The position numbers were made by a program, and so were the translations under genes. DNA of 64,000 nucleotides from Pseudomonadota bacterium. Lineage in GTDB: Bacteria > Pseudomonadota > Gammaproteobacteria > RBG-16-57-12. Where the stretch lies: positions 45,037 through 109,036 of the forward strand of contig JBFMHP010000001.1 of the NCBI GenBank assembly GCA_040752855.1, written 5' to 3'. The notes beneath the pieces are model-generated. The model searched no databases and was not told the origin of the DNA. It was given only the letters and a program-made list of their open reading frames with translations. Shown here one piece after another: positions 9,349-45,378 of the stretch; position 1 is the stretch's first letter, and every line of letters begins with the position of its first letter.

Positions 9349-9486
9349 GATTGATGCCGGGAACGGCTGCGCCTTATCCCGGCCTACCATGTGCTGACAG
9401 TCATACCGCGTAGGCCGGCATAAGCGCAGCGTTGCCGGCAAAAGATGTATCCAGAACGCTGCGACCATTCGGTGGTCTTATAGAGC

Positions 9487-26478: not shown

Positions 26479-26717
26479 GCGCGTATCCTTTAGTGCGTAT
26501 TAATTAACCTCAGCCATAGCGTCCCTGGTGACTCATATTATTTAGGTTGCTACCGGGAGTTCTGACTTTTATCGTTTGGTTAATTTAATAATTAACAGTG
26601 TTAGAAATCTGGTTTTAACCCAGTTTTTGAAGGAGGTAGAGCTGCGAGCAAGTACGAGTGAACAAAACTCTGCTGTATTTACTTTACTCGCGCTCATAAA
26701 ACTAAGGCCTTGACCCT

Positions 26718-27692: not shown

Positions 27693-27759
27693 TGATATGT
27701 CCTTATTTAAAAATGATTCATGTGAAAAATTTGTACATTGTCTTCAAGTCCAACGACCG

Positions 27760-29634: not shown

Positions 29635-29754
29635 ATAAGATACAAGAGCGTTTAGCCGATGGTTTTCTGGTTTGGTGGCGTAATCTGATAAGCCAATTAT
29701 GCCCAGAACGGTTAAGAAGGCTGCGATTCCTCTTCCTTTGTGCCAAACGTCTTC

Positions 29755-30327: not shown

Positions 30328-30331
30328 GATT

Positions 30332-31747
30332 TTAAGCCGCCTGCCTAGAGTCTGAAAACGGAACTGAAACGCCGTAGAATGTTAATGTTTTCCCTTCTAA
30401 CATTCTCAGTGCTAGGTTTAACCACTTTATTCCTTCTGCATAAATTGCCACTGGTCGGCGTTGATGCGTGTAACTGTCAACCATTATTCCGTCTTCATTT
30501 TTGTGAAAGTGAAATGGCGGCATTGCTGTAAAGTGTGTTCCCATTACAAATGCAAATCGAATTATCCAATTCGGATCATTCTTATTCATATCTGATTTGG
30601 GATTATCTAAGTCCCAGGCGTCATACATCACTGATTTGAAATGGCTTTCAATTCCCTCATATGATAATGAGTAGGAGTGATTGTCATGAGGGATAACTTC
30701 AATACTCATTCCGTCATGATTTTTATTTATCTTTAGGTCAAATAGTTCACTATGAATAACGTCATACTGGCCTAAAGAGTTATGCCATGGTTTATTGTCA
30801 TACATAGGATCATCAGACCCTGAATCTTCTCCATTTTCATGGAACCCAATTGCCCTTGGATCTAAAAATTTGATTCCAATGTCTTCAGCAGTAAAGCTAT
30901 AGTCTTTGGCTTTGATGAATCCAAGTAATGCATCCGGATTGGAAATTTTAATGTTTTCAGTATTGGTATCACCCATTACTAGGGTGTGGCGCAGTGGCTC
31001 CAGAATTTGCAAGTAATTCGGGTTACTTCTAAATTTCCTTAGTAGCGCCTTGATATTAAGTAGCTTAATGCCATCAATATAGATATTCTCCGTATTCAAT
31101 AGAGAATCTGAAAATACGCTTGATGAGGTTTCTCTAGATAACTCTAAACGCTTTTCTATTTTACGGAAATATGACTGCTCTAATGTTGGTCCAGAAGGTT
31201 TTCGGACTCGATTGCTGTGAATAATGCCATTTAGTGTGCGGTATATGACGACGTATATCCGAGCAACCGCTTCAACAGGAGGCTTGTGCTTGCGAATAAA
31301 CTCGCTGACCTCATCACCACCAATAAATGACATCTCGTAAATTAGCTCGTTTACTAATTCAGGTGTTCCGTCATTTGTTGCGGAAGCTCCGTTAGTTGAT
31401 TTTGGTACTTTTCTCTCAATTATACTGTCGACATATGGGAAGTACGGTTTTACAGTTTCAGGTAGGTTTTTAAGGTAGTGCGCCTGCTGTTTTGCCTTTT
31501 TGTAAGGAGCTAGCATTACATCTGTGCCGTCCCTATCCCATTTTGCGGTGATCAAATTTTCACTTAATATTTTCCGAACGATAGCAGCTGAATTGCCCGG
31601 TTTCTTTAAGAAAATTGTTAAGGACTCACTTCCGCCAATACCAAACCCTACGATTTTCTCTCCTGGGTTCATGTATTGACTGATAACGTCATCGTTCATT
31701 GGGATGTCTTTCTTGACGCCCGTATCGCTTGGTATTTCATTTTCCAT
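30332..31747 (-). CDS. Protein-kinase-like fold phosphotransferase (APH/ChoK-like), low-GC island
   Basis: Has a Gly-rich loop (GFGIGGSES), a Lys block (AAIVRKIL), a catalytic-loop-like LVMGDTNTENIKI and FLDPRA (D-x-G-like). 471 aa. Confidence 0.5.
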   Translation of the reverse strand: MENEIPSDTGVKKDIPMNDDVISQYMNPGEKIVGFGIGGSESLTIFLKKPGNSAAIVRKILSENLITAKWDRDGTDVMLAPYKKAKQQAHYLKNLPETVKPYFPYVDSIIERKVPKSTNGASATNDGTPELVNELIYEMSFIGGDEVSEFIRKHKPPVEAVARIYVVIYRTLNGIIHSNRVRKPSGPTLEQSYFRKIEKRLELSRETSSSVFSDSLLNTENIYIDGIKLLNIKALLRKFRSNPNYLQILEPLRHTLVMGDTNTENIKISNPDALLGFIKAKDYSFTAEDIGIKFLDPRAIGFHENGEDSGSDDPMYDNKPWHNSLGQYDVIHSELFDLKINKNHDGMSIEVIPHDNHSYSLSYEGIESHFKSVMYDAWDLDNPKSDMNKNDPNWIIRFAFVMGTHFTAMPPFHFHKNEDGIMVDSYTHQRRPVAIYAEGIKWLNLALRMLEGKTLTFYGVSVPFSDSRQAA

Positions 31748-31953
31748 GCTGCACCTCCTTGTGGTTTATCGAGTATTTTTATGCCTTTAAAGACTTATTG
31801 TTTATGCTGTTGAGTTAATTGTTTTTTTATTGCTTTTTTGCTAGCGAAGAGGCTTACTCCTCGGCTATATTCTTTGGGTTTGCTCGCCGCTATAAAGATT
31901 AACCCGACGATGCTGTGCGCGGGCTAACCCTGAAGCGTCGATTGTTATTCTTC

Positions 31954-32913
31954 TTAAATTTCAATAACAATCTTTCCTCGGGTGTGGCCTGACTCGCTCT
32001 TCTCGTGGGCTTTGGCGATATCGTCTAGGCGGAAAACGCTGTCAACTTCAACGGTAATATCTCCAGAGTCAATTAGCTCAGAAATTTCCGATAATTGGTC
32101 TGAGTTGGCTTGAACAAAGCAAAAGTTAGCGCTTACTTCATGCTTGGCTGCAAGCTCTTTGTTTGGAATTTCTGCGATTGAAATCAGGCAACCACCTCTC
32201 TTTAAAGTTGCCCAGGATTTTTCTAAGACTTCGCCACCCATGGTGTCGAATACGATGTCGAAATCTGCCAATTTAGAGAAATCTTGCTGGGTGTAGTCGA
32301 CTACTTCATCGGCACCTAGACCCTTCAAAAACTCAATATTTCGACTAGATGCGGTGGTGTAAACGGTAGCGCCTGCTTGTTTGGCAAGCTGGATTGCTGC
32401 AATGCCTACGCCACCAGCTCCAGCATGAATCAGGACACGATCGCCTTGTTTCATATGGCCGATATCGTTCAAGGCTTGCCATGCTGTTAGTGTGACTAGC
32501 GGTACAGCTGCTGATTTTTGCCAGCTTAGTGTTTTAGGTTTGGCCGCGATTTTATCTGCCGATACAGTGATGTACTCAGCATACGCGCCATTTTTTGAAA
32601 GGTCCGAGTGAGCGTACACGGCATCGCCAACACGCCATTTTTCGACATTCTTACCAACAGCGGCAACTTCGCCCGCAAAATCCCAGCCTAAAGTTAGAGG
32701 AAGTGCATGAGGAATAATTTCAACCAAGTAACCTTCGCGAATTTTCCAATCGACAGGATTTACTCCCGCAGCATGAACTTTGATCAAAACCTCACTTTCA
32801 GCTGGTTTTGGTATCGCAACGCTTTCCAATTTCATTTGTTCTGCGCCTCCGTAGTTGTGAATTCGTACGGCTCTCATTTGGCCTTCATTCATAGTGTTCA
32901 TTGCATTCTCCAT
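31954..32913 (-). CDS. Zn-dependent/MDR-family NADPH:quinone oxidoreductase
   Basis: MRAVRIHNYGG...LIKVHAAGVNPVDWKIREG plus a GAGGVG NAD(P)-binding motif. The true start is probably the internal Met (MRAV, about 32877). Confidence 0.85.
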   Translation of the reverse strand: MENAMNTMNEGQMRAVRIHNYGGAEQMKLESVAIPKPAESEVLIKVHAAGVNPVDWKIREGYLVEIIPHALPLTLGWDFAGEVAAVGKNVEKWRVGDAVYAHSDLSKNGAYAEYITVSADKIAAKPKTLSWQKSAAVPLVTLTAWQALNDIGHMKQGDRVLIHAGAGGVGIAAIQLAKQAGATVYTTASSRNIEFLKGLGADEVVDYTQQDFSKLADFDIVFDTMGGEVLEKSWATLKRGGCLISIAEIPNKELAAKHEVSANFCFVQANSDQLSEISELIDSGDITVEVDSVFRLDDIAKAHEKSESGHTRGKIVIEI

Positions 32914-33009
32914 TTACGCCGTAACTGGCGACTTGATTAATTTATCCAACTAAAAGCGCGTGCTTTATTTACATCGTGGGAGAAGTTTAAACAGGAAAAT
33001 GCCGCTTGA

Positions 33010-33023
33010 TTAGACATCTCTAA
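33010..33023. promoter_or_regulatory. Candidate LysR box (TTAGA-N4-TCTAA dyad) in the divergent QOR/LysR intergenic region
   Basis: An imperfect T-N11-A-type dyad about 85 bp upstream of the LysR start. Confidence 0.3.
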
Positions 33024-33105
33024 CGCACTAGACTGTTTCCATATACTCAACAATGGACGTTTGTGTGCCTCTCTATTTCGTTACACAGTAGGTGTTTGGT
33101 TATCA

Positions 33106-34023
33106 ATGAACAGCAAACGATTAGATAGTTTGCCGACTTTGGTTCTGTTTGCGCGCATTGTTCAATATGGCAGTTTGAGTGCGGCAGCACATCACTCTGG
33201 CTTGAGTCGTTCTGCTGTGAGTAAGCAATTGTGTGCACTAGAAGAAAAACTCGGCATTCGCTTGCTGCAGCGCAGTACTCGCAGTGTTAAGTTGACTGAG
33301 GCTGGAAAGCAGGTTTTGGGCGAGGCTATGCTGGTACAGGAAGCTTTTAATAGGGTTGAAACCTTATCGGAAGAGCTGCAAGGCCAAGTACGTGGCCACC
33401 TAAAAGTTTCTTGTTCAGCAGGTATTGGTCGTGTTCACTTAGTGCCTTTGGTCAAACAATTCCGTGCACTCTATCCGAAAGTACATGTGCAATTATTACT
33501 GGAGGATAGATTTGTTGATTTAATCGATGAGCAAATCGATGTGGCAATTCGTGTCGGCCATCTTCCTGACTCCTCGTTAATAGCATTGCGACTTGGAGAA
33601 ATGACCTGGGTGGTTTGCGCAAGTCCAGAGTACTTAAGTAAAAACGGTACCCCAAAAACCCCAACAGACCTACTTCAACATGATTGTCTTCACTATCGAA
33701 ATAGTCAAAGTGCTTTTGACAATTGGTTGTTTATGGGGCCAAATGGCGAGGAGAGAATTTCAATTAATGGCTCCCTCTCAATTAATGATTCAACAGCTTT
33801 AGTTCAGGCAGCTGAAGATGGTCAAGGAATTGTTTGGATTGATAAAAATTCAGTCGGTGATGCGTTTGAAACCGGTCGCCTTGTTCAGGTTTTGCAAGAC
33901 TACTCCCTGGGGATTGGCTACCCTATTTATGCGTTATATCCAGCGCGACACCATCTTCCTGCAAAGACGCGAAAATTTGTTGATTTTTTAACCGAACATT
34001 TCTCACCAAGTATACAGCGTTAA
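33106..34023 (+). CDS. LysR-family transcriptional regulator
   Basis: N-terminal HTH (LPTLVLFARIVQYGSLSAAAHHSGLSRSAVSKQL) and LysR substrate-binding domain. Divergent from the quinone oxidoreductase. The ORF begins at 33061 but the conserved start is MNSKRLDSL. Confidence 0.85.
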   Translation: MNSKRLDSLPTLVLFARIVQYGSLSAAAHHSGLSRSAVSKQLCALEEKLGIRLLQRSTRSVKLTEAGKQVLGEAMLVQEAFNRVETLSEELQGQVRGHLKVSCSAGIGRVHLVPLVKQFRALYPKVHVQLLLEDRFVDLIDEQIDVAIRVGHLPDSSLIALRLGEMTWVVCASPEYLSKNGTPKTPTDLLQHDCLHYRNSQSAFDNWLFMGPNGEERISINGSLSINDSTALVQAAEDGQGIVWIDKNSVGDAFETGRLVQVLQDYSLGIGYPIYALYPARHHLPAKTRKFVDFLTEHFSPSIQR

Positions 34024-34309
34024 ATAGGAAATATATTTTCTTTAATATCAATTGGCTGCAATGGAATAGTTGAACATAATAAGAAAATCGACGCAAGAAA
34101 GTGGGATGGCAGGTGAAATGGTTACCCCATGAGATCCTCGTTTGTATTACTAATCAATGGCGGCTCTGTCTATTTGGGAGACCTTCCTGGAGTTACATTC
34201 TGATGTCCGCTTTTGAGGAGGTTCAAGAGTACTTGGTTTTTTCGATAACGGCGGCTATCAGGATAAACCTGCCATCTTAATGGGATGGCCAACTGACTGT
34301 TTATTAGTC

Positions 34310-35010
34310 GAGAACAGCCTTCCGCAGCTTGATTAATATGGGCACTGTTTGTTAGATGAAGTCACGACAGCCATCGTCTTAACTCCTTAAGCATTCACCC
34401 AATCCGTAATCCTTTGCGACATCCGCAACATGTCGCGGCGTTGAGCGTTGCCTCAACGCCCCCTCACGCATCGAGCAGCCTGCCAATCCTTTGAAACAAA
34501 TAACGATATTCGCATTTCTCCATAATTGGCACGGAGAATGCGAAGGCTCAGATACGCCGTGAATGTTCGAGTTTTAACAGCGGGCACAACAAATCGCCCC
34601 GATTTGTTGTTCGACACGAAGAGTATCGCCATGAGACACGCGTTGACCATGACCACCCTATTACAGGAAAACCAAATCTTCTGTGGTACCGGAGGAGTAA
34701 GCACCGCCAATCGCGCATACCGCTTTGTGCCGGCATTCCAGGATACCGCCACTGGCCGAAACTACGTTTCACGATTCGCCGACGGACGCGCCGCACCCTG
34801 TCATCTGCTGGAGGGGTTGCCGGATGAGTTGGTGGTTGAGCGTTCCGAACGGGGCGCTGTTACTAGAATCAAGGATTCAGTCGTCTCGGGCTTTCTTCGT
34901 GGAGGGCGTTTCTATACACGCGCGGAGGCGGCCCAGATCGTGGCCATCTAGCCTGGATTTCTTTGCGTCCTGCAATCGGTTCTATCGCTCAAAGCAAAAT
35001 TCAGAATTTT
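34310..35010 (+). repeat. Copy 1 of the segmental duplication. Contains the full small gene X and its downstream region.
   Basis: 34310-34380 matches 39132-39200, and 34826-35010 matches 39205-39395 (about 85% identity). Copy 2 lacks about 440 bp in between. Confidence 0.75.
34631..34951 (+). CDS. Hypothetical small protein 'gene X' (106 aa; an alternative start at 34526 gives 141 aa)
   Basis: ORF with an RBS-like GAAGAG upstream. Its 3' 40 codons are duplicated at 39205-39324 with mostly conservative substitutions. Confidence 0.4.
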   Translation: MRHALTMTTLLQENQIFCGTGGVSTANRAYRFVPAFQDTATGRNYVSRFADGRAAPCHLLEGLPDELVVERSERGAVTRIKDSVVSGFLRGGRFYTRAEAAQIVAI

Positions 35011-35169
35011 TGTTCCTATTGAATACTATCGCCGCTTCATAACACCGCTTCGACCCAACCTTCTTTCGCACAATACGCTCGGTAAGATCAACGGATGCTG
35101 AACTTCAATGGCTCTTCTGCAAATACCTCGCTTGCATTGGAGTATACCAGCCGCAACCCGCTGTGGTCT

Positions 35170-35187
35170 GCCACAAATACTTGTGGC
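35170..35187. promoter_or_regulatory. Perfect palindrome GCCACAA-atac-TTGTGGC (candidate enhancer/UAS site)
   Basis: Conserved as GGCCACAA-atgc-TTGTGGCC at 40845-40864. About 105 bp upstream of the -24 element in both copies. Confidence 0.5.
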
Positions 35188-35275
35188 CTGACCGACCGCA
35201 GTCGTCACTCCAAGATCTGCTCACGAGACACATATCCTGCTGATCTGAAATCCATTTATTGCGCAGAACGCATGT

Positions 35276-35290
35276 TGGCGCAGCGCTTGC
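35276..35290 (+). promoter_or_regulatory. Sigma-54 (RpoN) -24/-12 promoter TGGCGC-N5-TTGC
   Basis: GG and GC are 12 nt apart. The consensus is TGGCAC-N5-TTGCW. About 80 nt upstream of the CCP-like start. Confidence 0.6.
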
Positions 35291-35383
35291 CATGCGGTAC
35301 ACGTGCACAAACTCTTCGACTGAAGACAGCGGCACGAAGTTAAGTCTCAACTCACTACTTCAATTCAACTAAGGAGATTGATC

Positions 35384-37591
35384 ATGCGCACAGTCACCAA
35401 CATGAGAAACAATCCGAAGTTTCGATCTGCAAGGTTAATTGAACGACAAGGACGTTCAGGGGTACCTCGGCATCGGTCTTTGGCCAAGACTGTCGGCGCG
35501 CTGGCCGTTGCCCTGTTGTGTGGTACTGCTACGGCCGCTGTCGATGATCGCGATTCTGGTCTCGGCGCCCCGCAGTTGCGTCAATTCGTCGATCAGCAAG
35601 TCGGCGGAATCCAGAAGTTGATGGTTCCAGCAAAGAATGAAGACCTGCCACAGCCACTGGGCACGGACGGAAAGCCGGACCCGCGTTTCAAGACCACCGA
35701 GGCGAAGCGTTATCTCGGCAAACAGCTTTTCCATGACCCGGACCGGATGGTCAGGATCGATCCCGCGTTCGGCGGCCTCCCGGAAACGGCACGGACCGCC
35801 TCTTGCGGTACTTGTCACCTGGGCGAGGCGGCCTCCAAAGCCGGCACCCTGTTCAACTTCGCCGTGGGTGGCGAGGGACGCGGCTACACCGACGCGAAGG
35901 GGAACTTCATTGCACGCAGGCGCCCCGACCTTGCCATTCTCCCGATGCTGCGACAGACGCCCTTGTTTCCCGGTGACGCGCTGGTGGATGAGCTACCCAC
36001 CCTCCAGGACGTCTACCGCGACAAGAACACGGGAGAAATCGTTGCCGGCAGCCCCGCCTTGCAGCGCAAGCTCGATCGTAGTGTTTTTGATCTGATCGCA
36101 ACCGGCCGGCTCGACGCCTTAGACAGCGTCGGGCGCAACGCGCCGAGCGTGCTCGGCGCCGCCTTCAACAACCGTCTGTTGCAGGGCGGCTTCGCAGGCG
36201 AGCCCGACTCCGCACCCGGGGGCTTGAACCCGTTCGGGTTTGTGGCGCAAGAAAGCGTGGCACTCTTGCTGCTCGACGCTCACCGGCTGCTCGAAAAACA
36301 GGCCAGCGAACTCGAGAAATTCGCTACATTCCGGCTATTGTTCCGCCAGGCGTTCCCCGAGGAAGCCGCCCAGGCGCCCGGCTGCGTGCCCGAGTCTCCG
36401 CCTGCTCAAGGTGCTTGTGACGCCCTGATCAACGACATGACCGCCTTGCGGGCGACGGCGACGTTCATGCGAACCGTGGTCACTCGCAACACGCCGTGGG
36501 ACAAGTTCTTGGCTGGAGACAACAGCGCGCTCACAGATAAACAGCGGCGCGGGGCCAAGCTCTTTTTCACCAAGGCGGAGGATGGCGGCGCGGGTTGCTT
36601 TACTTGCCACAGCGGACCGATGCTCAACAAGCAGCCTAACGACCCCGATGTGGCGGGTATGGGTCAGTTCGTGGAAGAAAACTTCTTCAACCTCGGGCTC
36701 GCCGATCATCCGTTGCAGGCGCTGAATCGCACGGTGAGAGGGCCAGGTTTCCGCGACGATGGAAGAAGGGAAATCACCGGCAAAGACAGCGATGCCTTCA
36801 AGTTCCGCGTGTTGACCTTGCGGCAGTTGAAGGATGGCCGTTTCTTCTTCCACAACGGCTCGTTCACGAGCGTCAGGGACGTGGTGCAGTACTTCAACGC
36901 CGGTGTCCCACAGGACGCAGTGGCCGCCGCCGCGGGTACGCTGACACCGCGCTTCACCAATCCCCGCGGAGCCGGCTCGCTCCCCGGGCTAGGCTTGAGC
37001 GAGCGTCAAGTGGATGATCTCACCGACTTCCTCGAGAACGCGCTCTACGATCCAGCGTTCGTGAAGTTCGATCCGAACTCGACCACGGACACGTTCGAGC
37101 TCAACGCGCGCGACACGACCTACTCGAAGTACCGTCCGGATCTGGTGGCGGCCGGCAACACTGACGGCCACCCGATGATTGACGGCCGATCTGTGAGCGG
37201 AAAGCCGCAGAATAACGACGACCCGCTGTCTCGACGCGACATGGGAATGGAGTTCCTGGACGTGACCGCCCAGGCGGTCATCGCACTGGCCGAGTCGAAC
37301 ACCCGACGCGGAGGTCTTCAGCAGGAAGATGTCTACAAGATCACCAACAACAGTACCTCGATCATAGACACCCACCTGCTCGTGATCGCCCGCGGTCTGT
37401 CGCCGAACGTCCGGCTGGAAAACCGCAGTGGAGTCAGCAAAGCCGGCGATCCGTATCTGCGTGTGTTCTTGCCCGATGGCGTCCTGATGCCTGGCCAGAG
37501 CATCGACGTGACGTTGGTCTTCCAGAAGCCGCTCAAGGCGCCGCCGGCGCAATACTCGCTCACGCTGCTGTCGGGACAGGGCAACCCGTGA
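35384..37591 (+). CDS. Di-haem cytochrome c peroxidase / MauG-family protein with long C-terminal beta-rich extension (737 aa)
   Basis: Two CxxCH haem motifs (SCGTCHLGE and GCFTCHSGP) in CCP-like context. Start set at 35384 (AAGGAG-N7-ATG). The ORF begins at 35378. Confidence 0.75.
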   Translation: MRTVTNMRNNPKFRSARLIERQGRSGVPRHRSLAKTVGALAVALLCGTATAAVDDRDSGLGAPQLRQFVDQQVGGIQKLMVPAKNEDLPQPLGTDGKPDPRFKTTEAKRYLGKQLFHDPDRMVRIDPAFGGLPETARTASCGTCHLGEAASKAGTLFNFAVGGEGRGYTDAKGNFIARRRPDLAILPMLRQTPLFPGDALVDELPTLQDVYRDKNTGEIVAGSPALQRKLDRSVFDLIATGRLDALDSVGRNAPSVLGAAFNNRLLQGGFAGEPDSAPGGLNPFGFVAQESVALLLLDAHRLLEKQASELEKFATFRLLFRQAFPEEAAQAPGCVPESPPAQGACDALINDMTALRATATFMRTVVTRNTPWDKFLAGDNSALTDKQRRGAKLFFTKAEDGGAGCFTCHSGPMLNKQPNDPDVAGMGQFVEENFFNLGLADHPLQALNRTVRGPGFRDDGRREITGKDSDAFKFRVLTLRQLKDGRFFFHNGSFTSVRDVVQYFNAGVPQDAVAAAAGTLTPRFTNPRGAGSLPGLGLSERQVDDLTDFLENALYDPAFVKFDPNSTTDTFELNARDTTYSKYRPDLVAAGNTDGHPMIDGRSVSGKPQNNDDPLSRRDMGMEFLDVTAQAVIALAESNTRRGGLQQEDVYKITNNSTSIIDTHLLVIARGLSPNVRLENRSGVSKAGDPYLRVFLPDGVLMPGQSIDVTLVFQKPLKAPPAQYSLTLLSGQGNP

Positions 37592-37611
37592 CAGGTGCTT
37601 GAGAGTAACGC

Positions 37612-37642
37612 CCGCCAACCCGGAGCCCGCCTTCGCGCGGGC
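37612..37642 (+). terminator. GC-rich hairpin (CCGGAGCCCGC-cttc-GCGGGCTCCGG) after the CCP-like gene
   Basis: 11-bp perfect stem 20 nt after the stop. Weak T-tract. Confidence 0.4.
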
Positions 37643-38166
37643 TCCGGGGATTAAAGAAAGCCTTTATCTACTGAAACGTTCATTCTGAATTTCTGCAAAC
37701 AGGAAGATGAAGCAACAGAACAATCTCGCTGGTGACGAAGATTTGATCAACTGCGCCAGCGGCGAAACTAATTAAAGGGCTTTGGCCCCTAAAGTCAGGA
37801 TGGCGCTCACTTGGGCGCGAACTTTGGATTGCCGAAAACAACGGGTTATCGATCGCACTAAGACGTTGTCGGCGATCTTGACGGTGGATATTTGTGCTTT
37901 CGCGGTGACCAATTGCCAGACAAATTGAGGATACCCACCAGTCTATTTATTGTGTCTCCTTAGTTTATTGCGTCGTTCTCAGGTTGTTTATTGCGATTTT
38001 TTTGGTAGTTGGCTTGTTAATGATTGCAGAACGCTCGAGCGGCATGGGCCGACTATACTAAGTTCTCTACACACAGCGCGCTATCGGACGATTTCTTCGC
38101 CGCACCGCGGCACATTACCAGGCAGGCAGTTGTCGGAGTCCCTCAATCATGAAGGAGACATATATC

Positions 38167-39006
38167 ATGCACACGATAAGCGGAAGGTTCGGCTTCAGGC
38201 CAATCACTATTGTGTCGTCTATTTTGTGTTTGTTGGTCGTCTTTCTGATCCCTTTGGGTGGCCCTGGCTTAGCGGCCGCTGCCCCGGAAAGTTGGACAGG
38301 ACACCGAGGTAAAATTCCTTTCAGCAAAGCCAAGATGATCATCGAGTTCAATTCCACCGCTAACGAGGGCGTGGGTGATGTGGGTGTCCAGGTGTTACTC
38401 GACGGAGAACCCTGGCAGTCGCTTAAGATCGAAGACCCTGACGAGCGTACGATTCTGAATATCAGGGCCAACAGTAGCTTGAGGAAGCAAGGGCTTACCG
38501 AACTGTTTTTCGAGAGTTCCGAGCCGTCATTGGATGAGACTCCGCTCGCGGATTTTCTGGCCCGTTTTCCAGAGGGAAATTACGAGTTCGAGGGAAGAAC
38601 GATCGACGGACAGCAGATTGAAGGAGTGGCGACATTCACACATATCATTCCAGCTGGGCCGGTTATTGTCTCGCCAGAGGAGGGTGATACAGTGGACGTT
38701 ACTGAGCCCCTGAGTATCCGTTGGGAGACGGTGACTAGTAAGGTCGAAGGTTCTGGCGAAGGCGACCTTGAAATTGTCGGCTACGAGGTGATCGTCGAAC
38801 GAACGGATAATGACGAACTCGGCGCTGCCCCGCGCACATTTGACATCAAGCTCGCGGCCACTTCGGCGCCAGTCCAAAGCGCAACGGTTCCGCCGGAATT
38901 TCTCGAACCAGGCCGCGAGTACAAGTTTGAGGTATTGGCGATCGAGAAAGGTGGCAATCAGACTATCTCGGAGGGTGGACCCTTCATGACCAACGCGACG
39001 CCCTAA
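38167..39006 (+). CDS. Secreted hypothetical protein with two beta-sandwich-like halves, downstream of the CCP-like gene
   Basis: GAAGGAG RBS 7 nt before ATG 38167. Has a signal peptide (ITIVSSILCLLVVFLIPLGGPGLAAAAP). The mature part has no Cys. Confidence 0.55.
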   Translation: MHTISGRFGFRPITIVSSILCLLVVFLIPLGGPGLAAAAPESWTGHRGKIPFSKAKMIIEFNSTANEGVGDVGVQVLLDGEPWQSLKIEDPDERTILNIRANSSLRKQGLTELFFESSEPSLDETPLADFLARFPEGNYEFEGRTIDGQQIEGVATFTHIIPAGPVIVSPEEGDTVDVTEPLSIRWETVTSKVEGSGEGDLEIVGYEVIVERTDNDELGAAPRTFDIKLAATSAPVQSATVPPEFLEPGREYKFEVLAIEKGGNQTISEGGPFMTNATP

Positions 39007-39131
39007 AATGCCGTAATACTTGCTCCGCCCGATCGTGCCCCTTTTAGCCTTGGCGGGCAACGACAACCGGGGGTACGAAGCGCATCAAGCGAGAAAAATT
39101 TTGTGAACGCAATACATTTGAATCCGCAGCT

Positions 39132-39395
39132 GAGAACAGCCTTCCGCAGCTTAATTAATTTGTCAGCTGAAATTACGACAGCCAATGTCTTAAATTCTTT
39201 CGGTGGTTGAGCGTTCCGAACGGGGTGCTGTTACCAGAATCAGGGATTCAGTCATCTCGGAATTTCTTCGTGGAGGGCGTTTTTATACACGCACGGAGGC
39301 GGCCCGGATCGTGGCCGTCTAGCCCGCATTTCTTTATGTCCTGCAATCAGCTTTACCGCTCAAAGCAAGATTCAGAATTTTGGTTCCAATTAAAC
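39132..39395 (+). repeat. Copy 2 of the segmental duplication (deletion derivative of 34310-35010)
   Basis: Collinear with copy 1 except for an internal about-440-bp deletion that removes the gene X promoter and 5' two-thirds. Confidence 0.75.
39205..39324 (+). pseudogene. 3' remnant of gene X (encodes VVERSERGAVTRIRDSVISEFLRGGRFYTRTEAARIVAV*)
   Basis: In-frame homolog of the last 40 codons of 34631-34951. The N-terminal part is absent. Confidence 0.6.
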
Positions 39396-39459
39396 AGCAA
39401 AAGTAATAATGGGCCATGCGACATCAGTGCAAACCACTACGCGGTACCCCGCTCTAAAA

Positions 39460-40689
39460 TTACCGCCACAGCGCGCTCACCGGCAGCGCAACATACTGGT
39501 CGCCAAACGGTATCACCTGATCACCGCCATAGAGCACCACGCCTCGGATAAATTTATCGCCCGCAGCCTGCGCCAGGGTTTCGAGGCCGGTGAGGTCTTT
39601 GCGGGTAAGCGATGCGGTGGCCTTGACCTCGACGCCGACTACGCGGCCGCGGGCGTCTTCGATGACCACATCGACTTCCCGGCCGGTGGTGGAACGGAAA
39701 TGGTAGAGCGATACGCGCTCTTGGGCCCAGCTCGCTTGTTTGCGCAGCTCGGCGACGACAAAGGATTCCAGCAGATGTCCCAGCAGTGTTGCGTCCTCGG
39801 CTAGGCGCTGAGAGGTCTGGCCTGTGAGATAGGCGGCCAGCCCGCTGTCGATGAGGTGGATCTTGGGTGATTTAACGAGCCGCTTGCCCAGGTTGGTAGA
39901 CCATGCCGGCAGCGGTTGGAACAGGAAGGTCATCTCTAGCAGGCTCAAGTAGCGCTTGAGAGTGGTGTGGGCGATGGCGGAGGCGCGCGACAGCTCGGAC
40001 ATGTTGAGCAACCCACCGGAACGCGCAGCGAGCAGGGCCAGGAGGCGTGGCATGTCGGTGAGTCCTTCGATGTGCGCCAGATCGCGGACGTCGCGTTGGA
40101 GGATGGCGGTGATGTAGGCGCCGAACCAAGCCTGGCGTCGGCCTGTATCTTCACGGGCGACGGCTTCCGGGTAGCCGCCGCCAATGATTTGGCTGAGGAT
40201 ATCAATACCGGTCTTTTCCGTATTCGAAAAATCGGGCAACCGCGGAGCAAAAACCGTATCGATGAACCGCTCAACGCGATCAGCAAGCTCTCCCTGGGAC
40301 AGGGGCCACAAGGGTATAGCCTCCATGCGGCCCGCCAGCGACTCGGACAATTGCGGCAGTAGCAGCACATTGGCCGAGCCAGTGAGCAGGAATCGCCCCG
40401 GGCGCCGGTCGGCATCCACTAGTATCTTGATGGCTGGAAACAGCCCCGGCGCCTTCTGCACTTCATCCACCACCACCATGCCCGGCAGGTTACGCAGGAA
40501 GCCATGCGGATCACCCACCGCGGCCGCCAGAGTCGTAGCGTCATCAAGTGTCACGTAGCGCCCCGCTCTCTGAGCGGCGATTTCTTGGGCCAGGGTGCTT
40601 TTGCCGGTCTGGCGGGCACCGTTGAGCAACACCACGGGGGTATCGCGGAGCACGGATTGGAGGTAAGGTTCGATATTTCGCCTGAACAT
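39460..40689 (-). CDS. AAA+ ATPase of the AAA_14/DUF4143 family (paralog of 15003-16454)
   Basis: Walker A LLNGARQTGKST. Same family architecture. Located as a 1.4-kb insertion inside duplication copy 2. Confidence 0.75.
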   Translation of the reverse strand: MFRRNIEPYLQSVLRDTPVVLLNGARQTGKSTLAQEIAAQRAGRYVTLDDATTLAAAVGDPHGFLRNLPGMVVVDEVQKAPGLFPAIKILVDADRRPGRFLLTGSANVLLLPQLSESLAGRMEAIPLWPLSQGELADRVERFIDTVFAPRLPDFSNTEKTGIDILSQIIGGGYPEAVAREDTGRRQAWFGAYITAILQRDVRDLAHIEGLTDMPRLLALLAARSGGLLNMSELSRASAIAHTTLKRYLSLLEMTFLFQPLPAWSTNLGKRLVKSPKIHLIDSGLAAYLTGQTSQRLAEDATLLGHLLESFVVAELRKQASWAQERVSLYHFRSTTGREVDVVIEDARGRVVGVEVKATASLTRKDLTGLETLAQAAGDKFIRGVVLYGGDQVIPFGDQYVALPVSALWR

Positions 40690-40820
40690 GGTGAAATATT
40701 AGCCATCACGTGGTGAATTTTCAACCACGCGACGTTGCCAAACCAGAAAAACCTGGTGCCCACTGAAAATATATCCACCCGCCTGCGGTAGTTCTAGGGA
40801 CAGAACTAATTCGAATTTAT

Positions 40821-41071
40821 CGCCAACCGCAACCCGTTGTGGCCGGCCACAAATGCTTGTGGCCTGACCGTCCGCAATCGCCATTCAAGGTCTCCTCGCA
40901 AGACTAATATCCTGTTGATATTAAATCAATTTATTACTCAGGACGCATGTTGGCACAGCGCTTGCCATTAGGTACACGTGCACAACGTTTTCGTCTGAAG
41001 ACAGCGGCACGAAATCAAGTCTCAAGTCACTACTGCAATTCAACTTAAGGAGATAAAACATGCGTACCAAA
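40821..41071 (+). promoter_or_regulatory. Leader copy 2 upstream of bufA (UAS palindrome 40845-40864 plus sigma-54 promoter)
   Basis: Homologous to 35147-35395. Confidence 0.75.
40951..40965 (+). promoter_or_regulatory. Sigma-54 -24/-12 promoter TGGCAC-agcgc-TTGC (exact consensus)
   Basis: TGGCAC-N5-TTGC with GG-to-GC spacing of 12 nt. About 95 nt upstream of the bufA ATG. Confidence 0.65.
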
Positions 41072-41329
41072 ACAGTCGTCACCTCAGCATTGGCCACCGT
41101 CGTAGTTCTGGGCATCGTGGCCACGGCCTCGGCGCAACCGGCCGCGAAACCGAAGTATGACTTCGAAAAGTGCTATGGCGTGGTAAAGGCTGGCAAGAAC
41201 GATTGCCAGACGGCCAACAGCTCCTGCGCCGGGACCTCGAAGATGGACGCCAACCCGACCGCCTGGATCTATGTGCCCAAGGGGACGTGCGATCGCATCG
41301 TCGGTGCCAGCACCCAACCCAAGGCATGA
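41060..41329 (+). CDS. bufA: DUF2282-type secreted Cys-containing precursor peptide (bufferin BufA-like)
   Basis: 89 aa. Has a Sec signal peptide (MRTKTVVTSALATVVVLGIVATASA). The mature region carries 4 Cys (EKCYG, NDCQT, SSCAG, GTCDR). Immediately precedes the DUF692 gene. Confidence 0.75.
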   Translation: MRTKTVVTSALATVVVLGIVATASAQPAAKPKYDFEKCYGVVKAGKNDCQTANSSCAGTSKMDANPTAWIYVPKGTCDRIVGASTQPKA

Positions 41330-42213
41330 GGATGCAGAGCATGATTCCTTCCGCGAACAATCATTTCGCAGTGGGACCGATTCCGGCGCAAGCCGGAATC
41401 GGATTGCGGGCCGAGCACTATCATGAGGTGGTGGAGACCAAGCCCGCGATCGCCTGGTTCGAGGCGCACAGCGAGAACTACTTCGGTGCCGGCGGCCGTC
41501 CACTGTATTTTCTGGAGCGCGTCCGCGCCGATTATCCGGTGAGTCTGCACGGTGTGGGACTCTCATTGGGCTCCGCCGATGCACTGAACCTGCGCCATCT
41601 CGAGAAGCTGCGGGACTTGATTCAGCGCATCGAGCCCGGGCTGGTTTCCGAGCATCTCTCGTGGGGCTCGGTGGGCGGGCGCTATCTCAACGATCTGCTG
41701 CCGCTGCCCTATACCGATGAGACCTTGCGCCATCTGATCGAGCGCGTGCAACAGGTGCAGGAGTTTCTCGGGCGGCAGATCCTCATCGAGAACATTTCCT
41801 GCTATCTGGAATATGAAGACACCACGCTCGCCGAGCCGCAATTTCTCGCGGAGCTGGCGCGGCGCAGCGGCTGCGCGCTGCTGCTTGATGTCAACAACGT
41901 GTATGTCAACGCCGTCAATCACCGCTTCGATCCCTTTGGCTATGTGGCGGCGATCCCCGCGGATCTGGTGCAGGAGATCCATCTCGCTGGCCACACCCGC
42001 CGGCAGCTTGAAGACGGCGCGATCCTCATCGACACGCACGATCAGCTCGTCACCCCTGCGGTGTGGGAACTCTATCGCGCCGCGGTCGCGCGCCTGGGCC
42101 GCATCCCGACCTTGATCGAATGGGACAGCGATCTACCCGCGCTGGAGGTATTGCTCGCCGAGGCGGCGCACGCCGAGCAGGTGATGGAGGTGGGCTATGC
42201 CGACGTTGCATGA
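41326..42213 (+). CDS. bufB: DUF692 / MNIO (multinuclear non-haem iron-dependent oxidative) enzyme, BufB/MbnB/TglH-like
   Basis: TIM-barrel xylose-isomerase-like pattern (GIGLRAEHY, FEAHSENYF, LHGVGLSLGS, HLSWGS, IENIS, IHLAGH). ATGA start/stop overlap with bufA. Confidence 0.85.
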   Translation: MRMQSMIPSANNHFAVGPIPAQAGIGLRAEHYHEVVETKPAIAWFEAHSENYFGAGGRPLYFLERVRADYPVSLHGVGLSLGSADALNLRHLEKLRDLIQRIEPGLVSEHLSWGSVGGRYLNDLLPLPYTDETLRHLIERVQQVQEFLGRQILIENISCYLEYEDTTLAEPQFLAELARRSGCALLLDVNNVYVNAVNHRFDPFGYVAAIPADLVQEIHLAGHTRRQLEDGAILIDTHDQLVTPAVWELYRAAVARLGRIPTLIEWDSDLPALEVLLAEAAHAEQVMEVGYADVA

Positions 42214-42982
42214 GTTGCAGCAGGGTTTCACTGCCGCGGTGTTCGATGCAAACCGCATCGATGTCTGTCGCCACATCCGTGACAACGGCTTGTCCGCCGC
42301 GCGGCGCCTGCAGATCTATCGTCATGATGTCTTCACCAAGTTCACCGAGGCCCTGGCCGCGGTCTATCCGGTGGTGCAGCGCCTGGTCGGCGCAGCGTTT
42401 TTCGAACAAACCGCCCGGGAGTACATCGTGCACCATCCCGCGCGGTGTGGCGACGTGCAGGCCTTCGGCGACCAATTCGCCGATTTTCTCGCCGCGCTGC
42501 CGCAGGTCTCGGGGTTGCCCTATCTGCCTGATGTGGCGCGCCTGGAATGGGCCTACCACGAGGTCTTTCATGCGGCCGACGCGCCGCCGCTCGACCCGAA
42601 CGCGCTCGCCGCGCTGCCGACTGAAGTGCACGGGGCGCTGCGTTTCATGCTGCATCCCGCCGCGCGGCTGCTGCGCTCGAACTATCCCGTATTGCGCATC
42701 TGGCAGGTGAATCAATCCGAGGCTGACCCCGCCGAGGTGGTGCGCCTCGATGAAGGAGGCGTGCGACTGCTGGTGATTCGGCGCGGGCTGGACATCGAGT
42801 TCGAGACGCTGAGCGAGGGCGCCTTCGCCCTGCTCGATGCCCTCGCGCACGGAGGCACCTTGGCGTTCGCGTGCGAGTGGGCGATCGCTGCGCAGCCGGA
42901 TCTCTCGCTCGTGCATTGCCTGAGCGGACACATTCAACGGGCGACCCTGGTGGGATTTCGCCTCGACTCAACTGCTAACTAG
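42197..42982 (+). CDS. bufC: DUF2063 partner protein (BufC/MbnC/TglI-like)
   Basis: 261 aa. Overlaps bufB by 17 nt. The N-terminus LQQGFTAAV...RLQIYRHDVF is typical of DUF2063. Confidence 0.8.
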   Translation: MPTLHELQQGFTAAVFDANRIDVCRHIRDNGLSAARRLQIYRHDVFTKFTEALAAVYPVVQRLVGAAFFEQTAREYIVHHPARCGDVQAFGDQFADFLAALPQVSGLPYLPDVARLEWAYHEVFHAADAPPLDPNALAALPTEVHGALRFMLHPAARLLRSNYPVLRIWQVNQSEADPAEVVRLDEGGVRLLVIRRGLDIEFETLSEGAFALLDALAHGGTLAFACEWAIAAQPDLSLVHCLSGHIQRATLVGFRLDSTAN

Positions 42983-42992
42983 GAGGTGCCTC

Positions 42993-43475
42993 ATGGCCAC
43001 CATCGCACACGTTCCAAGCAAACCCGTCCAATTCTCGCTGCTGCGCTCGGCCAAGGCATTCATCCGCGGTCTGGACTTCTTGAGCCCGGTGGGCGATCTC
43101 ATCGTGCGCCTGTATCTGGCGCAGGTGTTCTTTCAGGCGGGTCTCACCAAGATCCAGAGCTGGGACAGCACCGTCGCCCTGTTTACCTACGAATACCAGG
43201 TGCCCTTCCTGCCGCCGGAAATCGCGGCCTATATGGGCACCTTTACCGAGCTATTTTTCCCGGTGTTGCTCGCCGTGGGGCTGGCGGGACGCTTCAGCGC
43301 GGCGGTGTTGTTCATCTTCAACATCATCGCGGTCGTCTCCTACCCCGGTCTGATGGAGGCGGGCGTCGAGCAACACAAGGTGTGGGGCATCCTGCTGCTC
43401 ATGCCCTTGTTACACGGCCCCGGCCGGCTGTCGCTGGATTACTTCATCGCCAAGCGATTCTTTGGCGGTGTCTGA
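42993..43475 (+). CDS. bufD: DoxX-family membrane protein (BufD-like)
   Basis: 160 aa with 4 TM helices. Has the DoxX pattern (RLYLAQVFFQAGLTKI...GRLSLD). Confidence 0.8.
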   Translation: MATIAHVPSKPVQFSLLRSAKAFIRGLDFLSPVGDLIVRLYLAQVFFQAGLTKIQSWDSTVALFTYEYQVPFLPPEIAAYMGTFTELFFPVLLAVGLAGRFSAAVLFIFNIIAVVSYPGLMEAGVEQHKVWGILLLMPLLHGPGRLSLDYFIAKRFFGGV

Positions 43476-43508
43476 GTCTGTCAGCAAACACTTTTGAGGA
43501 GATCAACC

Positions 43509-44330
43509 ATGAGTATGTCGCGGCAAATGAATTCGGTATTGGAGGGACAACGCGCCCTGATCACCGGCGCCAACTCCGGCATCGGTGCCGGCATCGCAGT
43601 GGCGCTGGCGGCGGCCGGCGCGCGGGTGGCGGTGAACTTCGTGCGCAGCGCGGAGGACGCCGAACGGGTGGTGGAACACATCCGCGCCCAAGGCGGCGAG
43701 GCCATCGCCGTGAAGACCGATGTGAGTCAAGAGGATCAGGTCGAGGCCATGTTCGACCAGGTGGTGGAGGCCTTCGGCGGGTTGGACATCCTGATCAACA
43801 ACGCGGGGCTGCAAAAGGATGCGCCGTTGGTCGACATGAGCCTCTCCGACTGGGAGGTAGTGATGCGCGTGAATCTCACCGGGCAGTTCCTGTGCGCGCG
43901 GCGCGCGGCACGCGAGTTCATCCGTCAGGGCGTCGATGCGAAGCGTTCGCCGGCCGCGGGCAAGATCATCTGCATCTCCTCGGTGCATGACGTCATCCCC
44001 TGGGCGGGTCATGCCAACTACGCGGCCTCCAAGGGCGGGGTGATGATGCTGATGAAGACCCTGGCGCAGGAGCTCGCCGCGCACAAGATCCGCGTCAACA
44101 GCATCTCGCCCGGGGCGATCAAGACCCCCATCAACCACACCGCCTGGGCCACGCCCGAGAAGGAGGCCGAGCTGCTGGAGCTTATCCCCTACGGGCGGGT
44201 GGGCGAGACCGCCGACATCGGGCGCGCCGCGGTGTGGCTCGCCTCGGACGAATCCGACTACGTGAGCGGTGCGACCCTGTATGTCGACGGCGGGATGACG
44301 CTCTACCCCTCGTTCCGCTATGGAGGCTGA
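43509..44330 (+). CDS. SDR-family oxidoreductase (glucose-1-dehydrogenase / 3-oxoacyl-ACP-reductase-like)
   Basis: TGANSGIG, NNAG, S...Y..SK motifs. GAGGAG RBS before ATG 43509. Confidence 0.85.
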   Translation: MSMSRQMNSVLEGQRALITGANSGIGAGIAVALAAAGARVAVNFVRSAEDAERVVEHIRAQGGEAIAVKTDVSQEDQVEAMFDQVVEAFGGLDILINNAGLQKDAPLVDMSLSDWEVVMRVNLTGQFLCARRAAREFIRQGVDAKRSPAAGKIICISSVHDVIPWAGHANYAASKGGVMMLMKTLAQELAAHKIRVNSISPGAIKTPINHTAWATPEKEAELLELIPYGRVGETADIGRAAVWLASDESDYVSGATLYVDGGMTLYPSFRYGG

Positions 44331-45366
44331 GATGCGCGCGCGACTGCACCACGTCCTTGGTCTTGCCACCGGACTGGCACTGCTCCTCGCAGGCGCGGCG
44401 GCGGCCGAGGCGCCAACCGGCAGCGCCAGCGACTCACGGGGGGATCGCACCGGACTGCCCGAGGGCGAGCAACCGTGGTGGCCGAGCCGCTATGGGGCCG
44501 ACGACCAGCTCGGCACGCTGAACGAGATCACGCCCGCGGTGGTGCGCGCCGCCGCAGCCCTGGTCAAACAGGGCCGGGTGGTGGACCTCGGCCGCGTCCT
44601 GGACGCGGACACGCCCAAGTTTCCCGGCCGTTATTGGCACCAGAGCATCGAGGTCTCGCCCCACTTCACCAACCTGCGCCGCCCCGACCGTCATGGCAAG
44701 GGCTGGGGCAGGAACGAGATCAACTGGATCACCGAGATCCAAGCCGGGACCTTCCAGGTCGGCACCCAGCTCGATTCCATCGGGCATATCCAGATCGGCG
44801 ACCGTTTCTATAACGGCTGGACCGCCCGCGACGTGGTCGAGCCCTGGGGCCTGAACCGTTTCGGCATGGAGGGCGTGCCGCCGATCGTCACGCGCGGCGT
44901 GCTGATCGACATCGCCGCCTACAAGGGCGTGGCGCGACTGCCCAAGGGCTATGTCATCACCGTGGCGGACATGGAGGGTGCCCTCAAGCGCCAGGGCATC
45001 GACATTCGCGCCGGGGATGCGGTGCTGATCCACACCGGCTGGGGCGGTCTGTGGGGCAAGGACAACGCAGCGTTTCTCGATGGCGAGCCGGGGCCGGGCC
45101 TGGCGGTGGTCCAGTGGCTCTACGACCGGCACATCGCCCTCACCGGGGCCGATACCTGGAGCTACGGGCCGGTACCCGGCGAGGACCCCGAGCGGCCGTT
45201 TCTGGTGCCCCAGACCATGTACGTCAAGCTGGGCCTGTTCGGCCTGGAGAATCTCGCCACCGAAGAACTCGCCGCGCGCGGCATCCATGAGTTTCTGTTC
45301 ACGGTCACCCACGCCAAGACGCGCGGTTCCACCGCCGCGGTCATCGCCCCGGCGGCGCTTTATTGA
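44320..45366 (+). CDS. Cyclase-family protein (kynurenine-formamidase-like) with signal peptide
   Basis: PF04199-like metal-binding region (VGTQLDSIGHIQIGDRFYNGW). N-terminal LGLATGLALLLAGAAAA. Confidence 0.7.
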   Translation: MEAEMRARLHHVLGLATGLALLLAGAAAAEAPTGSASDSRGDRTGLPEGEQPWWPSRYGADDQLGTLNEITPAVVRAAAALVKQGRVVDLGRVLDADTPKFPGRYWHQSIEVSPHFTNLRRPDRHGKGWGRNEINWITEIQAGTFQVGTQLDSIGHIQIGDRFYNGWTARDVVEPWGLNRFGMEGVPPIVTRGVLIDIAAYKGVARLPKGYVITVADMEGALKRQGIDIRAGDAVLIHTGWGGLWGKDNAAFLDGEPGPGLAVVQWLYDRHIALTGADTWSYGPVPGEDPERPFLVPQTMYVKLGLFGLENLATEELAARGIHEFLFTVTHAKTRGSTAAVIAPAALY

Positions 45367-45378
45367 GGAGGACGCGAT

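Follow-up and report, generated by a model that had tools for sequence, protein, structure and literature searches.

Tandem dyads and predicted sigma-54 promoters in duplicated leaders upstream of a bufferin operon and a di-haem CCP/MauG-like gene

A stretch of 64,000 nucleotides from contig JBFMHP010000001.1 of an uncultured gammaproteobacterium, here called the window, carries closely similar leaders of about 250 bp in front of two different operons, one of which starts with the gene of a di-haem cytochrome c peroxidase (CCP)/MauG-like protein and the other with the bufferin gene bufA. These two leaders and a third element at 34423-34541 are likely to be enhancer-type sigma-54 promoters under the control of a bacterial enhancer-binding protein (bEBP) encoded at 23436-25319. 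In an earlier note on this DNA it had been proposed that the bufferin and CCP-like operons form one sigma-54 regulon driven by a single bEBP, and this proposal is supported by the comparative evidence and extended by the third promoter. The anatomy of the promoters, their non-random occurrence, their conservation across loci and their co-occurrence with one family of activators are direct observations on the sequences.

The promoters are designated P1, P2 (upstream of the CCP-like gene, leader copy A) and P3 (upstream of bufA, leader copy B), and were found to consist of the following elements, in which UAS denotes an upstream activating sequence and IHF the integration host factor.

34423-34438, plus strand: P1 UAS, dyad CCGCAA-CATG-TCGCGG, 98 bp upstream of the -24 GG
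34527-34541, plus strand: P1 -24/-12 element TGGCAC-GGAGA-ATGC, 9/10 consensus positions with GG and GC intact
35151-35166, plus strand: P2 UAS, distal dyad CCGCAA-CCCG-CTGTGG
35171-35186, plus strand: P2 UAS, proximal perfect dyad CCACAA-ATAC-TTGTGG
35249-35261, plus strand: P2 IHF-like box AATCCATTTATTG, one mismatch to WATCAANNNNTTR, in a segment 100% identical to the sister genome (L001, see below)
35276-35290, plus strand: P2 -24/-12 element TGGCGC-AGCGC-TTGC, 9/10 consensus positions, 108 nt before the ATG
40827-40842, plus strand: P3 UAS, distal dyad CCGCAA-CCCG-TTGTGG
40847-40862, plus strand: P3 UAS, proximal dyad CCACAA-ATGC-TTGTGG
40924-40936, plus strand: P3 IHF-like box AATCAATTTATTA, perfect match to WATCAANNNNTTR
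40951-40965, plus strand: P3 -24/-12 element TGGCAC-AGCGC-TTGC, exact consensus, 109 nt before the bufA ATG

At all three positions (40951, 35276 and 34527) the GG at -24, the GC at -12 and the consensus spacing of a sigma-54 promoter are present, and 40951-40965 is the sole exact match to TGGCAC-N5-TTGC in the window. The -24/-12 elements at 35276-35290 and 40951-40965 had been described in the same form before, as had the palindrome of each leader, which was recovered as GCCACAA-ATAC-TTGTGGC at 35170-35187 and GCCACAA-ATGC-TTGTGGC at 40846-40863. The enhancer-type placement ascribed to this palindrome holds; the description of a single palindrome does not, since upstream of the -24 GG each leader contains two tandem dyads of the form CCRCAA-N4-YTGYGG, with centres at distances of 98-99 and 118-119 bp from it. 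In both leaders the distal dyad reads CCGCAA-CCCG-YTGTGG and the proximal dyad CCACAA-ATRC-TTGTGG, and the distance of about 105 bp formerly given between palindrome and -24 box has to be replaced by a measured 98-99 bp from centre to GG. P1, located just upstream of the two leaders, is a third promoter of the same build, and its IHF-like box has one mismatch to the WATCAANNNNTTR type. Across the buf loci, IHF-like boxes with at most one mismatch were present in 16 of 37 promoters and in 2 of 37 control segments. No sigma-70-like site was detected in either leader.

The alignment of 35080-35420 with 40760-41100 (MAFFT) revealed similarity that is unbroken from about 35147/40823 to coding base 8. 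With about 85% identity between 35147-35395 and 40823-41071, the duplication reported earlier at about 80% is real, and in the repeat search the pair appeared as two ungapped blocks, one of 64 nt at 86% and one of 160 nt at 85%. Both leaders also share the ribosome binding site (RBS) AAGGAG-N7-ATG and the start codons ATGCG(C/T)AC (M R T), as had been noted. In addition, it was observed that the 5' untranslated regions (UTRs) at 35296-35383 and 40971-41059 are 84-87% conserved across the two window copies and L001, and that they contain GGTACACGTGCAC, which is palindromic, as well as a GUCUC with the potential to base-pair with the RBS, a pairing for which no structural or covariation support was obtained.

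The non-random nature of the arrangement lies in the combination of its parts. By itself the -24/-12 string is not enriched in the window (7 one-mismatch matches, 7.1 expected); the palindrome is found three times against 0.32 expected, a number reached by no shuffle. When a dyad located 60-150 bp upstream of a sigma-54-like site was required, three combinations were observed, compared with 0.07 expected from 200 Markov-1 simulations. All three units lie on the plus strand in intergenic regions and are co-directional with the downstream genes.

The candidate regulator is encoded upstream of P1.

23436-25319, plus strand: GAF-PAS-Sigma54_activat-HTH_8 enhancer-binding protein (Pfam)

The identity as a bEBP, previously assigned to 23430-25319, was confirmed by this domain order, by a score of 241.6 bits for PF00158, by the Walker A motif GETGTGKE, by the GAFTGA loop and by the C-terminal Fis-type helix-turn-helix (HTH) domain HTH_8. 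It is the only bEBP in the window. The score of the protein remained below every NCBIfam equivalog cut-off, e.g. 416.5 against 528.85 for NifA and 357.3 against 830 for FhlA, and likewise for NorR, AtoC and PrdR. In a comparison of HTH domains, the bEBPs linked to buf clusters were not told apart from an unrelated bEBP of locus L008. This bEBP is the likely regulator of the three promoters. A gene for a HipA-like kinase (Couple_hipA, HipA_C; 21949-23277) is located directly upstream, and this adjacency is kept in L001.

The genes downstream of P1, P2 and P3 form a co-directional array.

34631-34951, plus strand: small open reading frame (ORF) of 106 aa, the first of the array, no Pfam or NCBIfam match
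35384-37591, plus strand: di-haem CCP/MauG-like protein of 735 aa (Pfam CCP_MauG), RBS at 35371-35376
38149-39006, plus strand: fn3-like ORF, weak fn3 match, no match in L001
41060-41329, plus strand: bufA, DUF2282 (PF10048, 85.7 bits)
41341-42213, plus strand: bufB, MNIO protein (NF050167 MNIO_BufB, 394.4 against a cut-off of 310)
42197-42982, plus strand: bufC, DUF2063 (Pfam)
42993-43475, plus strand: DoxX (BufD) (Pfam)
43494-48887, plus strand: tightly packed genes for a short-chain dehydrogenase/reductase (SDR), a cyclase, a GMC oxidoreductase and a GDE-type glycosidase (Pfam)

The assignments made earlier to the first genes behind the two leaders, CCP_MauG at 35384-37591 and DUF2282 (BufA1) at 41060-41329, agree with Pfam. 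The small ORF behind P1 is 87% identical to a called 106-aa gene of L001, a second L001 copy of which is a 107-aa ORF at 2796-3119. The CCP-like protein scored 43.6 bits for PF03150 (cut-off 25.6), contains two CxxCH motifs (CGTCH and CFTCH) and matched CCPs of the PDB with E-values of 1e-11 to 1e-6. A database copy of it (P0001) is 100% identical with a length of 703 aa and a start at TTG 35480. Within the 96-nt N-terminal extension 5 of the 9 codon differences from L001 are synonymous, and the ATG at 35384 has the conserved RBS in front of it, so that the true protein may be the longer form of 735 aa. Whether the fn3-like ORF belongs to the P2 transcript is uncertain, given the gap of 558 bp after the CCP-like gene. 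BufA possesses a Sec signal peptide and four conserved Cys residues, and with a DUF2282 precursor, an MNIO protein, DUF2063 and DoxX in one array the cluster is of the Buf1 type. The buf operon probably continues into the SDR, cyclase, GMC and GDE genes; the same gene order follows bufABCD in L010, L092 and L093. No gene for an extracytoplasmic function (ECF) sigma factor or for NrsF was detected by Pfam next to buf in the window.

For comparison with a sister metagenome-assembled genome (MAG), two contigs of the uncultured Chromatiales MAG GCA_964557295.1, L001 and L092, were used, which overlap by 55 identical bases. The bEBP of the window and that of the sister MAG are 87% identical, the CCP-like proteins 77%. 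L001 holds, in this order, HipA, bEBP, small ORF, leader and CCP-like gene, and L092 holds bufABCD-DoxX-SDR-cyclase-GMC-GDE. The CCP leader of L001 is 87-100% identical to window copy A, depending on the segment, compared with 66% at the four-fold degenerate sites of the adjacent coding sequence, and is therefore constrained or homogenised. In the bufA leader of L092 the identity to the window leaders is only 55% in UAS and spacer; nevertheless CCACAG-CACG-CTGCGG, CCGCGG-TATG-TTGCGG, an AT-rich box and the perfect element TGGCAC-GGCCC-TTGCC are kept in register. Window copy B resembles the CCP leaders more than it does the bufA leader at the orthologous position in L092. From this it follows that the paralogy is old, and gene conversion may have contributed to the likeness of copies A and B. 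As duplication or gene conversion accounts for part of that likeness, it does not by itself demonstrate constraint; the likeness is best read as paralogy, perhaps with gene conversion, on top of functional constraint. Both L001 copies retain the P1 dyad in the form CCGCAA-TATG-TCGCGG, and the P1 -24/-12 element is identical at L001 9154, within a highly conserved block.

A strict scan across genomes for the exact palindrome together with a sigma-54 site, a pattern that proved too stringent, returned only the sister MAG and one chance match inside a coding sequence (L007). The earlier note had made its proposal depend on conservation of the palindrome and the -24/-12 element in relatives, and the arrangement is indeed kept where the flanks diverge: it was found in L092, L010/L011, L093/L094, L096, L008 and 21 clusters of metagenomic bufA sequences. 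In L010/L011 and L093/L094, bEBP homologues of 60-64% identity are encoded 250-430 bp upstream of bufABC-DoxX-SDR-cyclase-GMC-GDE, and the intergenic regions can be aligned with the window at dyads and promoter only, with dyads 97/115 bp (L010/L011) and 99/118 bp (L093/L094) from -24. In Methylocaldum gracile (L008) a bEBP homologue of 61% identity is located near the same dyads and TGGCGC-N5-TTGCT; this predicted promoter drives an SDR gene (70% identical to the window SDR) and MsrPQ-like genes. In Methylococcus sp. EFPC2 a buf-DoxX-SDR-GMC-MsrPQ operon is immediately adjoined at its 3' end by the gene of the bEBP homologue.

A metagenome search with BufB yielded 80 loci with 56-64% identity, in which the exact string TGGCAC-N5-TTGC was found 44 times against 1.95 expected. 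A site upstream of bufA was counted if at least 9/10 consensus positions were matched 35-135 nt before the start; this was the case in 33 of 73 upstream regions (about 45%), which represent 21 clusters at 80% identity. The scan requires GC at -12 and misses TGGCAC-N5-TTGAT (L093, L096), so that these counts are lower bounds. This Competibacteraceae-type -12 variant TTGAT was observed at L093 7625-7639 and L096 5413-5427, where dyads and an IHF-like box are present. Dyads CCRCAA-N4-YTGYGG were located upstream of nearly all metagenomic sites, with preferred distances of about 85, 94, 103, 116 and 131 bp. Among loci with enough flanking sequence, 14 contained both a sigma-54 site and a homologue of the bEBP or its GAF sensor, 2 the site only, none the homologue only and 23 neither (Fisher p = 8e-9, an optimistic value for loci that are phylogenetically non-independent). 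Many soil loci carry a two-component variant that consists of a GAF-GAF-HisKA-HATPase-REC kinase and a REC-AAA+-HTH response regulator. The earlier remark that sigma-54 control would be unusual for a system of peptides that are synthesized ribosomally and modified post-translationally (RiPPs) or metallophores stands insofar as such control is unreported; it is apparently common in this bufferin clade and not the peculiarity of one genome.

Homologues of the CCP-like gene (65-68% identity) in L048, L059, L063 and L090 follow a second DUF2282 gene and have a perfect sigma-54 site of their own 96-100 nt upstream, with a dyad at 93 bp; co-regulation of bufferin and CCP-like genes therefore recurs independently of the duplication in the window. 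In these four loci a porin-like protein of 373 aa, the second DUF2282 protein and the CCP-like protein are encoded in a divergent unit beside bufABCD (e.g. L090 611-4482, minus strand), of which the first and last genes carry their own sigma-54 sites. Such an arrangement points to a functional connection between the di-haem enzyme and a paralogue of bufferin.

Regarding binding, sigma-54 dependence, start site, operon extent and signal, we infer the following mechanism. Upstream of the -24 GG, the GAF-PAS-AAA+-HTH activator would bind the tandem dyads CCRCAA-N4-YTGYGG, whose centres lie about 98 and 118 bp from it, and IHF at the AT-rich box would bend the DNA between dyads and promoter. ATP hydrolysis by the activator would then remodel the sigma-54 holoenzyme at TGGCRC-N5-TTGC, and transcription would start about 12 nt downstream of the GC, giving a leader of 80-85 nt with a strong RBS. 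Three transcription units are predicted: the 106-aa ORF; the CCP/MbnH-like gene, perhaps together with the fn3-like ORF; and bufABCD-DoxX-SDR-cyclase-GMC-GDE. As for the signal, the GAF domain might respond to a cue of copper or oxidative stress in the periplasm.

Several observations weigh against the proposed control by sigma-54 and this bEBP. The source organism is uncultured and known as a MAG, and rpoN was not found in the 64 kb of the window, its presence being only implied by the bEBP. The putative assignment of the bEBP 23436-25319 to the dyads comes from synteny alone. Copy A (TGGCGC) and the L001 copy (TGGTAC) depart from the -24 consensus, the P1 dyad in L001 is 200-300 bp and not 98 bp away from its promoter, and the 87% conservation of the 5' UTR is not explained by a sigma-54 model. 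Among the metagenomic loci, the sigma-54-positive L040 and L044 show no bEBP within the flanks retrieved. Moreover, CCP homologues of 82% identity (L002-L005) lack the leader and have an unrelated upstream region; the CCP-like gene is therefore not always part of the regulon, and the leader does not generally travel with the gene.

One of the other explanations accepts the sigma-54 promoters and lets the dyads be bound by another bEBP encoded elsewhere, the bEBP at 23436-25319 controlling something else. Only 64 kb of the MAG are visible, bEBP families are large (8000 matches), the HTH recognition helix resembles that of the unrelated L008 bEBP, and the bEBP gene now stands at a distance of about 9 kb from P1. 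This gap, however, is the AT-rich insertion described below, absent at the ancestral junction seen in L001; in L010/L011 and L093/L094 the same dyads come with homologues whose genes are located 250-430 bp upstream of bufA, the dyads accompany a bEBP homologue in Methylocaldum, and the metagenomic promoter co-occurs with a bEBP or a kinase sharing the sensor GAF domain, so that we regard a foreign bEBP as improbable. Still less probable is a dyad that serves as the operator of a LysR-type, BufC/DUF2063 or OmpR-type regulator, with an ECF or sigma-70 start and an incidental TGGCAC-N5-TTGC. Known buf operons do use ECF sigma-F/NrsF, BvgAS or an influence of RpoS, a LysR gene is present at 33061-34023, and DUF2063 is annotated as a putative DNA-binding domain; yet sigma-70-like hexamers are lacking from the leaders, neither an ECF sigma nor an NrsF gene was found beside buf in the window, the LysR gene is part of the AT-rich island and has no counterpart in L001, L010 and L093, and exact sigma-54 sites show a 20-fold enrichment at a fixed distance before the bufA start (21 independent sequence clusters) and co-occur with bEBPs.

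A recent segmental duplication or gene conversion alone, with the motifs hitch-hiking, possibly decayed, and one or both copies non-regulatory, would account for an identity that extends over all 250 bp, with the UTR and the first eight coding bases among them, for the repeat D1 upstream (see below), for a copy B nearer to the CCP leaders than to the L092 orthologue, which suggests conversion, and for TGGCGC in copy A. It is very unlikely, given that conservation between genomes is higher in the leader than at synonymous sites, that all copies retain the dyads and the GG and GC dinucleotides amid variation elsewhere, and that CCP-like and bufA genes in unrelated loci carry the same elements independently. 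We attach the least weight to a palindrome that acts in the RNA, either as terminator or attenuator of the upstream gene, and to a leader that is itself a cis-regulatory RNA. The perfect arms of 7-8 bp with a 4-nt loop, the 87% conserved 5' UTR and a possible GUCUC-RBS pairing in the consensus fold would fit it; but no U-tract follows the hairpin, and the half-sites are conserved across loci instead of covarying and stand in tandem at fixed distances from -24. The Rfam search of 34000-42000 gave no match at E <= 1, the 5' UTR fold had a z-score of -0.04 relative to shuffles, and no compensatory pairs were found; with no Rfam match, a fold no better than shuffles and no covariation, a riboswitch or leader RNA was dropped. 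Enhancer-type sigma-54 promoters under the bEBP remain the preferred explanation for P1, P2 and P3.

The history of the locus could be followed in part, for which these features are needed.

25320-34398: AT-rich island outside the regulon, GC content 37-49% compared with about 58-70% in the flanks (composition profile)
34831-35023, plus strand: repeat D1, small-ORF 3' end and 70 bp, duplicated at 39202-39394
39202-39394, plus strand: repeat D1', remnant of the small-ORF 3' end (repeat search)
39460-40689, minus strand: AAA_14/DUF4143 ATPase gene outside the regulon, between D1' and leader B (Pfam)

The duplication is larger than the earlier note described: a second repeat (34831-35023 and 39202-39394, 89% identity) is located upstream of each leader, and since it is the 3' end of the small ORF, the original duplicated unit was larger than the leader. 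Copy B of this unit is now split by the minus-strand AAA_14/DUF4143 gene, which is served by a sigma-70-like promoter at 40724-40696 (minus strand). In the sister MAG this gene before bufA is deleted with only both ends left (L092 2927-3109). A second AAA_14/DUF4143 ATPase gene is present at 15003-16454 (plus strand); this 483-aa ORF had been considered as rpoN and was rejected as an AAA_14/DUF4143 protein. A further direct repeat of 71 nt with 87% identity was observed at 4815-4885 and 6302-6372, about 1.5 kb apart.

The AT-rich island contains an SDR gene, a zinc alcohol dehydrogenase gene, the LysR gene (33061-34023) and four co-directional minus-strand ORFs without Pfam match (26718-27692, 27760-29634, 29755-30327 and 30332-31747). 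In a BLAST comparison of L001 with the window, the bEBP 3' end joins sequence homologous to window position 34399 onward. The 3' end of the bEBP gene thus bordered on the P1 enhancer originally, with the island inserted later in the window. Because the sister MAG holds a different cassette at the same junction, this is probably a hot spot at which the island was inserted after horizontal acquisition. The L001 cassette comprises S8 peptidase and PatG_D/PatG_C-like genes, which resemble a RiPP-type protease pair, and is flanked by duplicated copies of the bEBP 3' end, the P1 enhancer, the promoter and the small ORF (2250-3120 and 8636-9568).

The GAF domain of the bEBP (window 23445-23954) is homologous, with 38-41% identity, to both tandem GAF domains of the hybrid kinases found at similar loci (e.g. 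L048 8185-8667 and 8767 onward), and in the GAF domains of bEBP and kinases alike the TPCE motif and a GH pair occur without variation, so that they are candidates for a site that takes part in ligand binding, metal binding or redox sensing. Genes for EF-hand proteins, protoglobin and MsrA/MsrPQ-type proteins recur beside sigma-54-type buf loci (L037 4870-5343, minus strand, and L095/L096 at about 9000-10050) and fit a theme of envelope oxidative or metal stress. As a tentative extension, which we consider doubtful, the TPCE/GH GAF sensors could form an unrecognised widespread family of stress sensors, perhaps for copper or oxidants, that are fused to a sigma-54 activator or stand in tandem in a hybrid kinase feeding a sigma-54 response regulator, and that switch on an envelope-defence regulon via CCRCAA-N4-YTGYGG. 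Bufferin, the MbnH-like di-haem enzyme, MsrPQ-like, SDR, GMC, EF-hand and porin-like proteins would then be members of this regulon, and the MbnH-like enzyme may have bufferin as its substrate or partner.

Bufferins, which are copper-binding RiPPs, form a very large family that was defined only recently. If the proposed control is true, a sizeable clade of them is switched on by an ATP-dependent sigma-54 activator via a defined enhancer. Named in this prediction are the family of the regulator and its site on the DNA, a single locus with three promoters, and, as an organism in culture, Methylococcus sp. EFPC2. The regulon would tie a conserved di-haem MbnH-like enzyme of 700 aa as well as MsrPQ, SDR and GMC genes to bufferin, links that offer leads on bufferin physiology and possible further modification chemistry, and the result points to a candidate GAF sensor domain.

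Among known systems, buf1 and buf2 of Caulobacter vibrioides are under the control of ECF sigma-F/NrsF, and ECF sigma/NrsF genes are found in Buf1 clusters (PMC11626156, PMC12452194). The product type is the same as here (DUF2282 bufferin, MNIO, DUF2063, DoxX) and the regulator is likewise encoded nearby; the sigma class differs, and the proposed ATP-dependent activator acting at a distance contrasts with anti-sigma release in Caulobacter. For bufferin clusters elsewhere, BvgAS control and metal induction have been described, as has an influence of RpoS in Legionella, and in a broad MNIO survey the conserved neighbours were only sigma-70-family and NrsF genes, others occurring in extremely low proportions. 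A literature search returned no relevant report joining DUF2282 or DUF692 with sigma-54/RpoN.

The pairing of a di-haem enzyme of the CCP/MauG fold with a copper-binding peptide system resembles MbnH/MbnP of methanobactin and copper-homeostasis operons. MbnH is the best NCBIfam match of the 735-aa protein, with 90.6 bits against a TIGR04039 cut-off of 362.85, so that by score the protein stays outside the MbnH family; it exceeds MbnH by about 300 residues and has an unassigned C-terminal part, an MbnP partner was not found for it, and its link to bufferin is genomic only.

ZraSR-ZraP of enterobacteria is a sigma-54-dependent two-component system for envelope metal stress. There, as predicted here, a sigma-54 activator drives a periplasmic metal-stress protein, and the L090-type variant with a histidine kinase and a REC-AAA+-HTH response regulator beside the target comes close to ZraSR. 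Unlike ZraSR, the activator of the window is a one-component protein (GAF-PAS, no REC), the targets differ, and sensing apparently occurs by a cytoplasmic GAF domain (TPCE, GH) and not by a periplasmic domain.

The classic sigma-54 enhancer promoters with tandem upstream bEBP sites and IHF include NorR-norVW, NifA-nifH, XylR-Pu and FhlA-hyc. The promoters of the window share with them a -24 GG and a -12 GC 11 bp apart, dyads about 100-120 bp upstream and an IHF-like box in between, and the activator shares an N-terminal GAF/PAS region, an AAA+ domain with GAFTGA, a Fis-type HTH and a gene near its targets. CCRCAA-N4-YTGYGG matches no bEBP site known to us, and the targets, a RiPP metallophore cluster and a di-haem enzyme, differ from those of the classic systems. 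The locus accordingly adds a new sigma-54 regulon, a new activator subfamily and a new enhancer motif to a mechanism that is itself not new.

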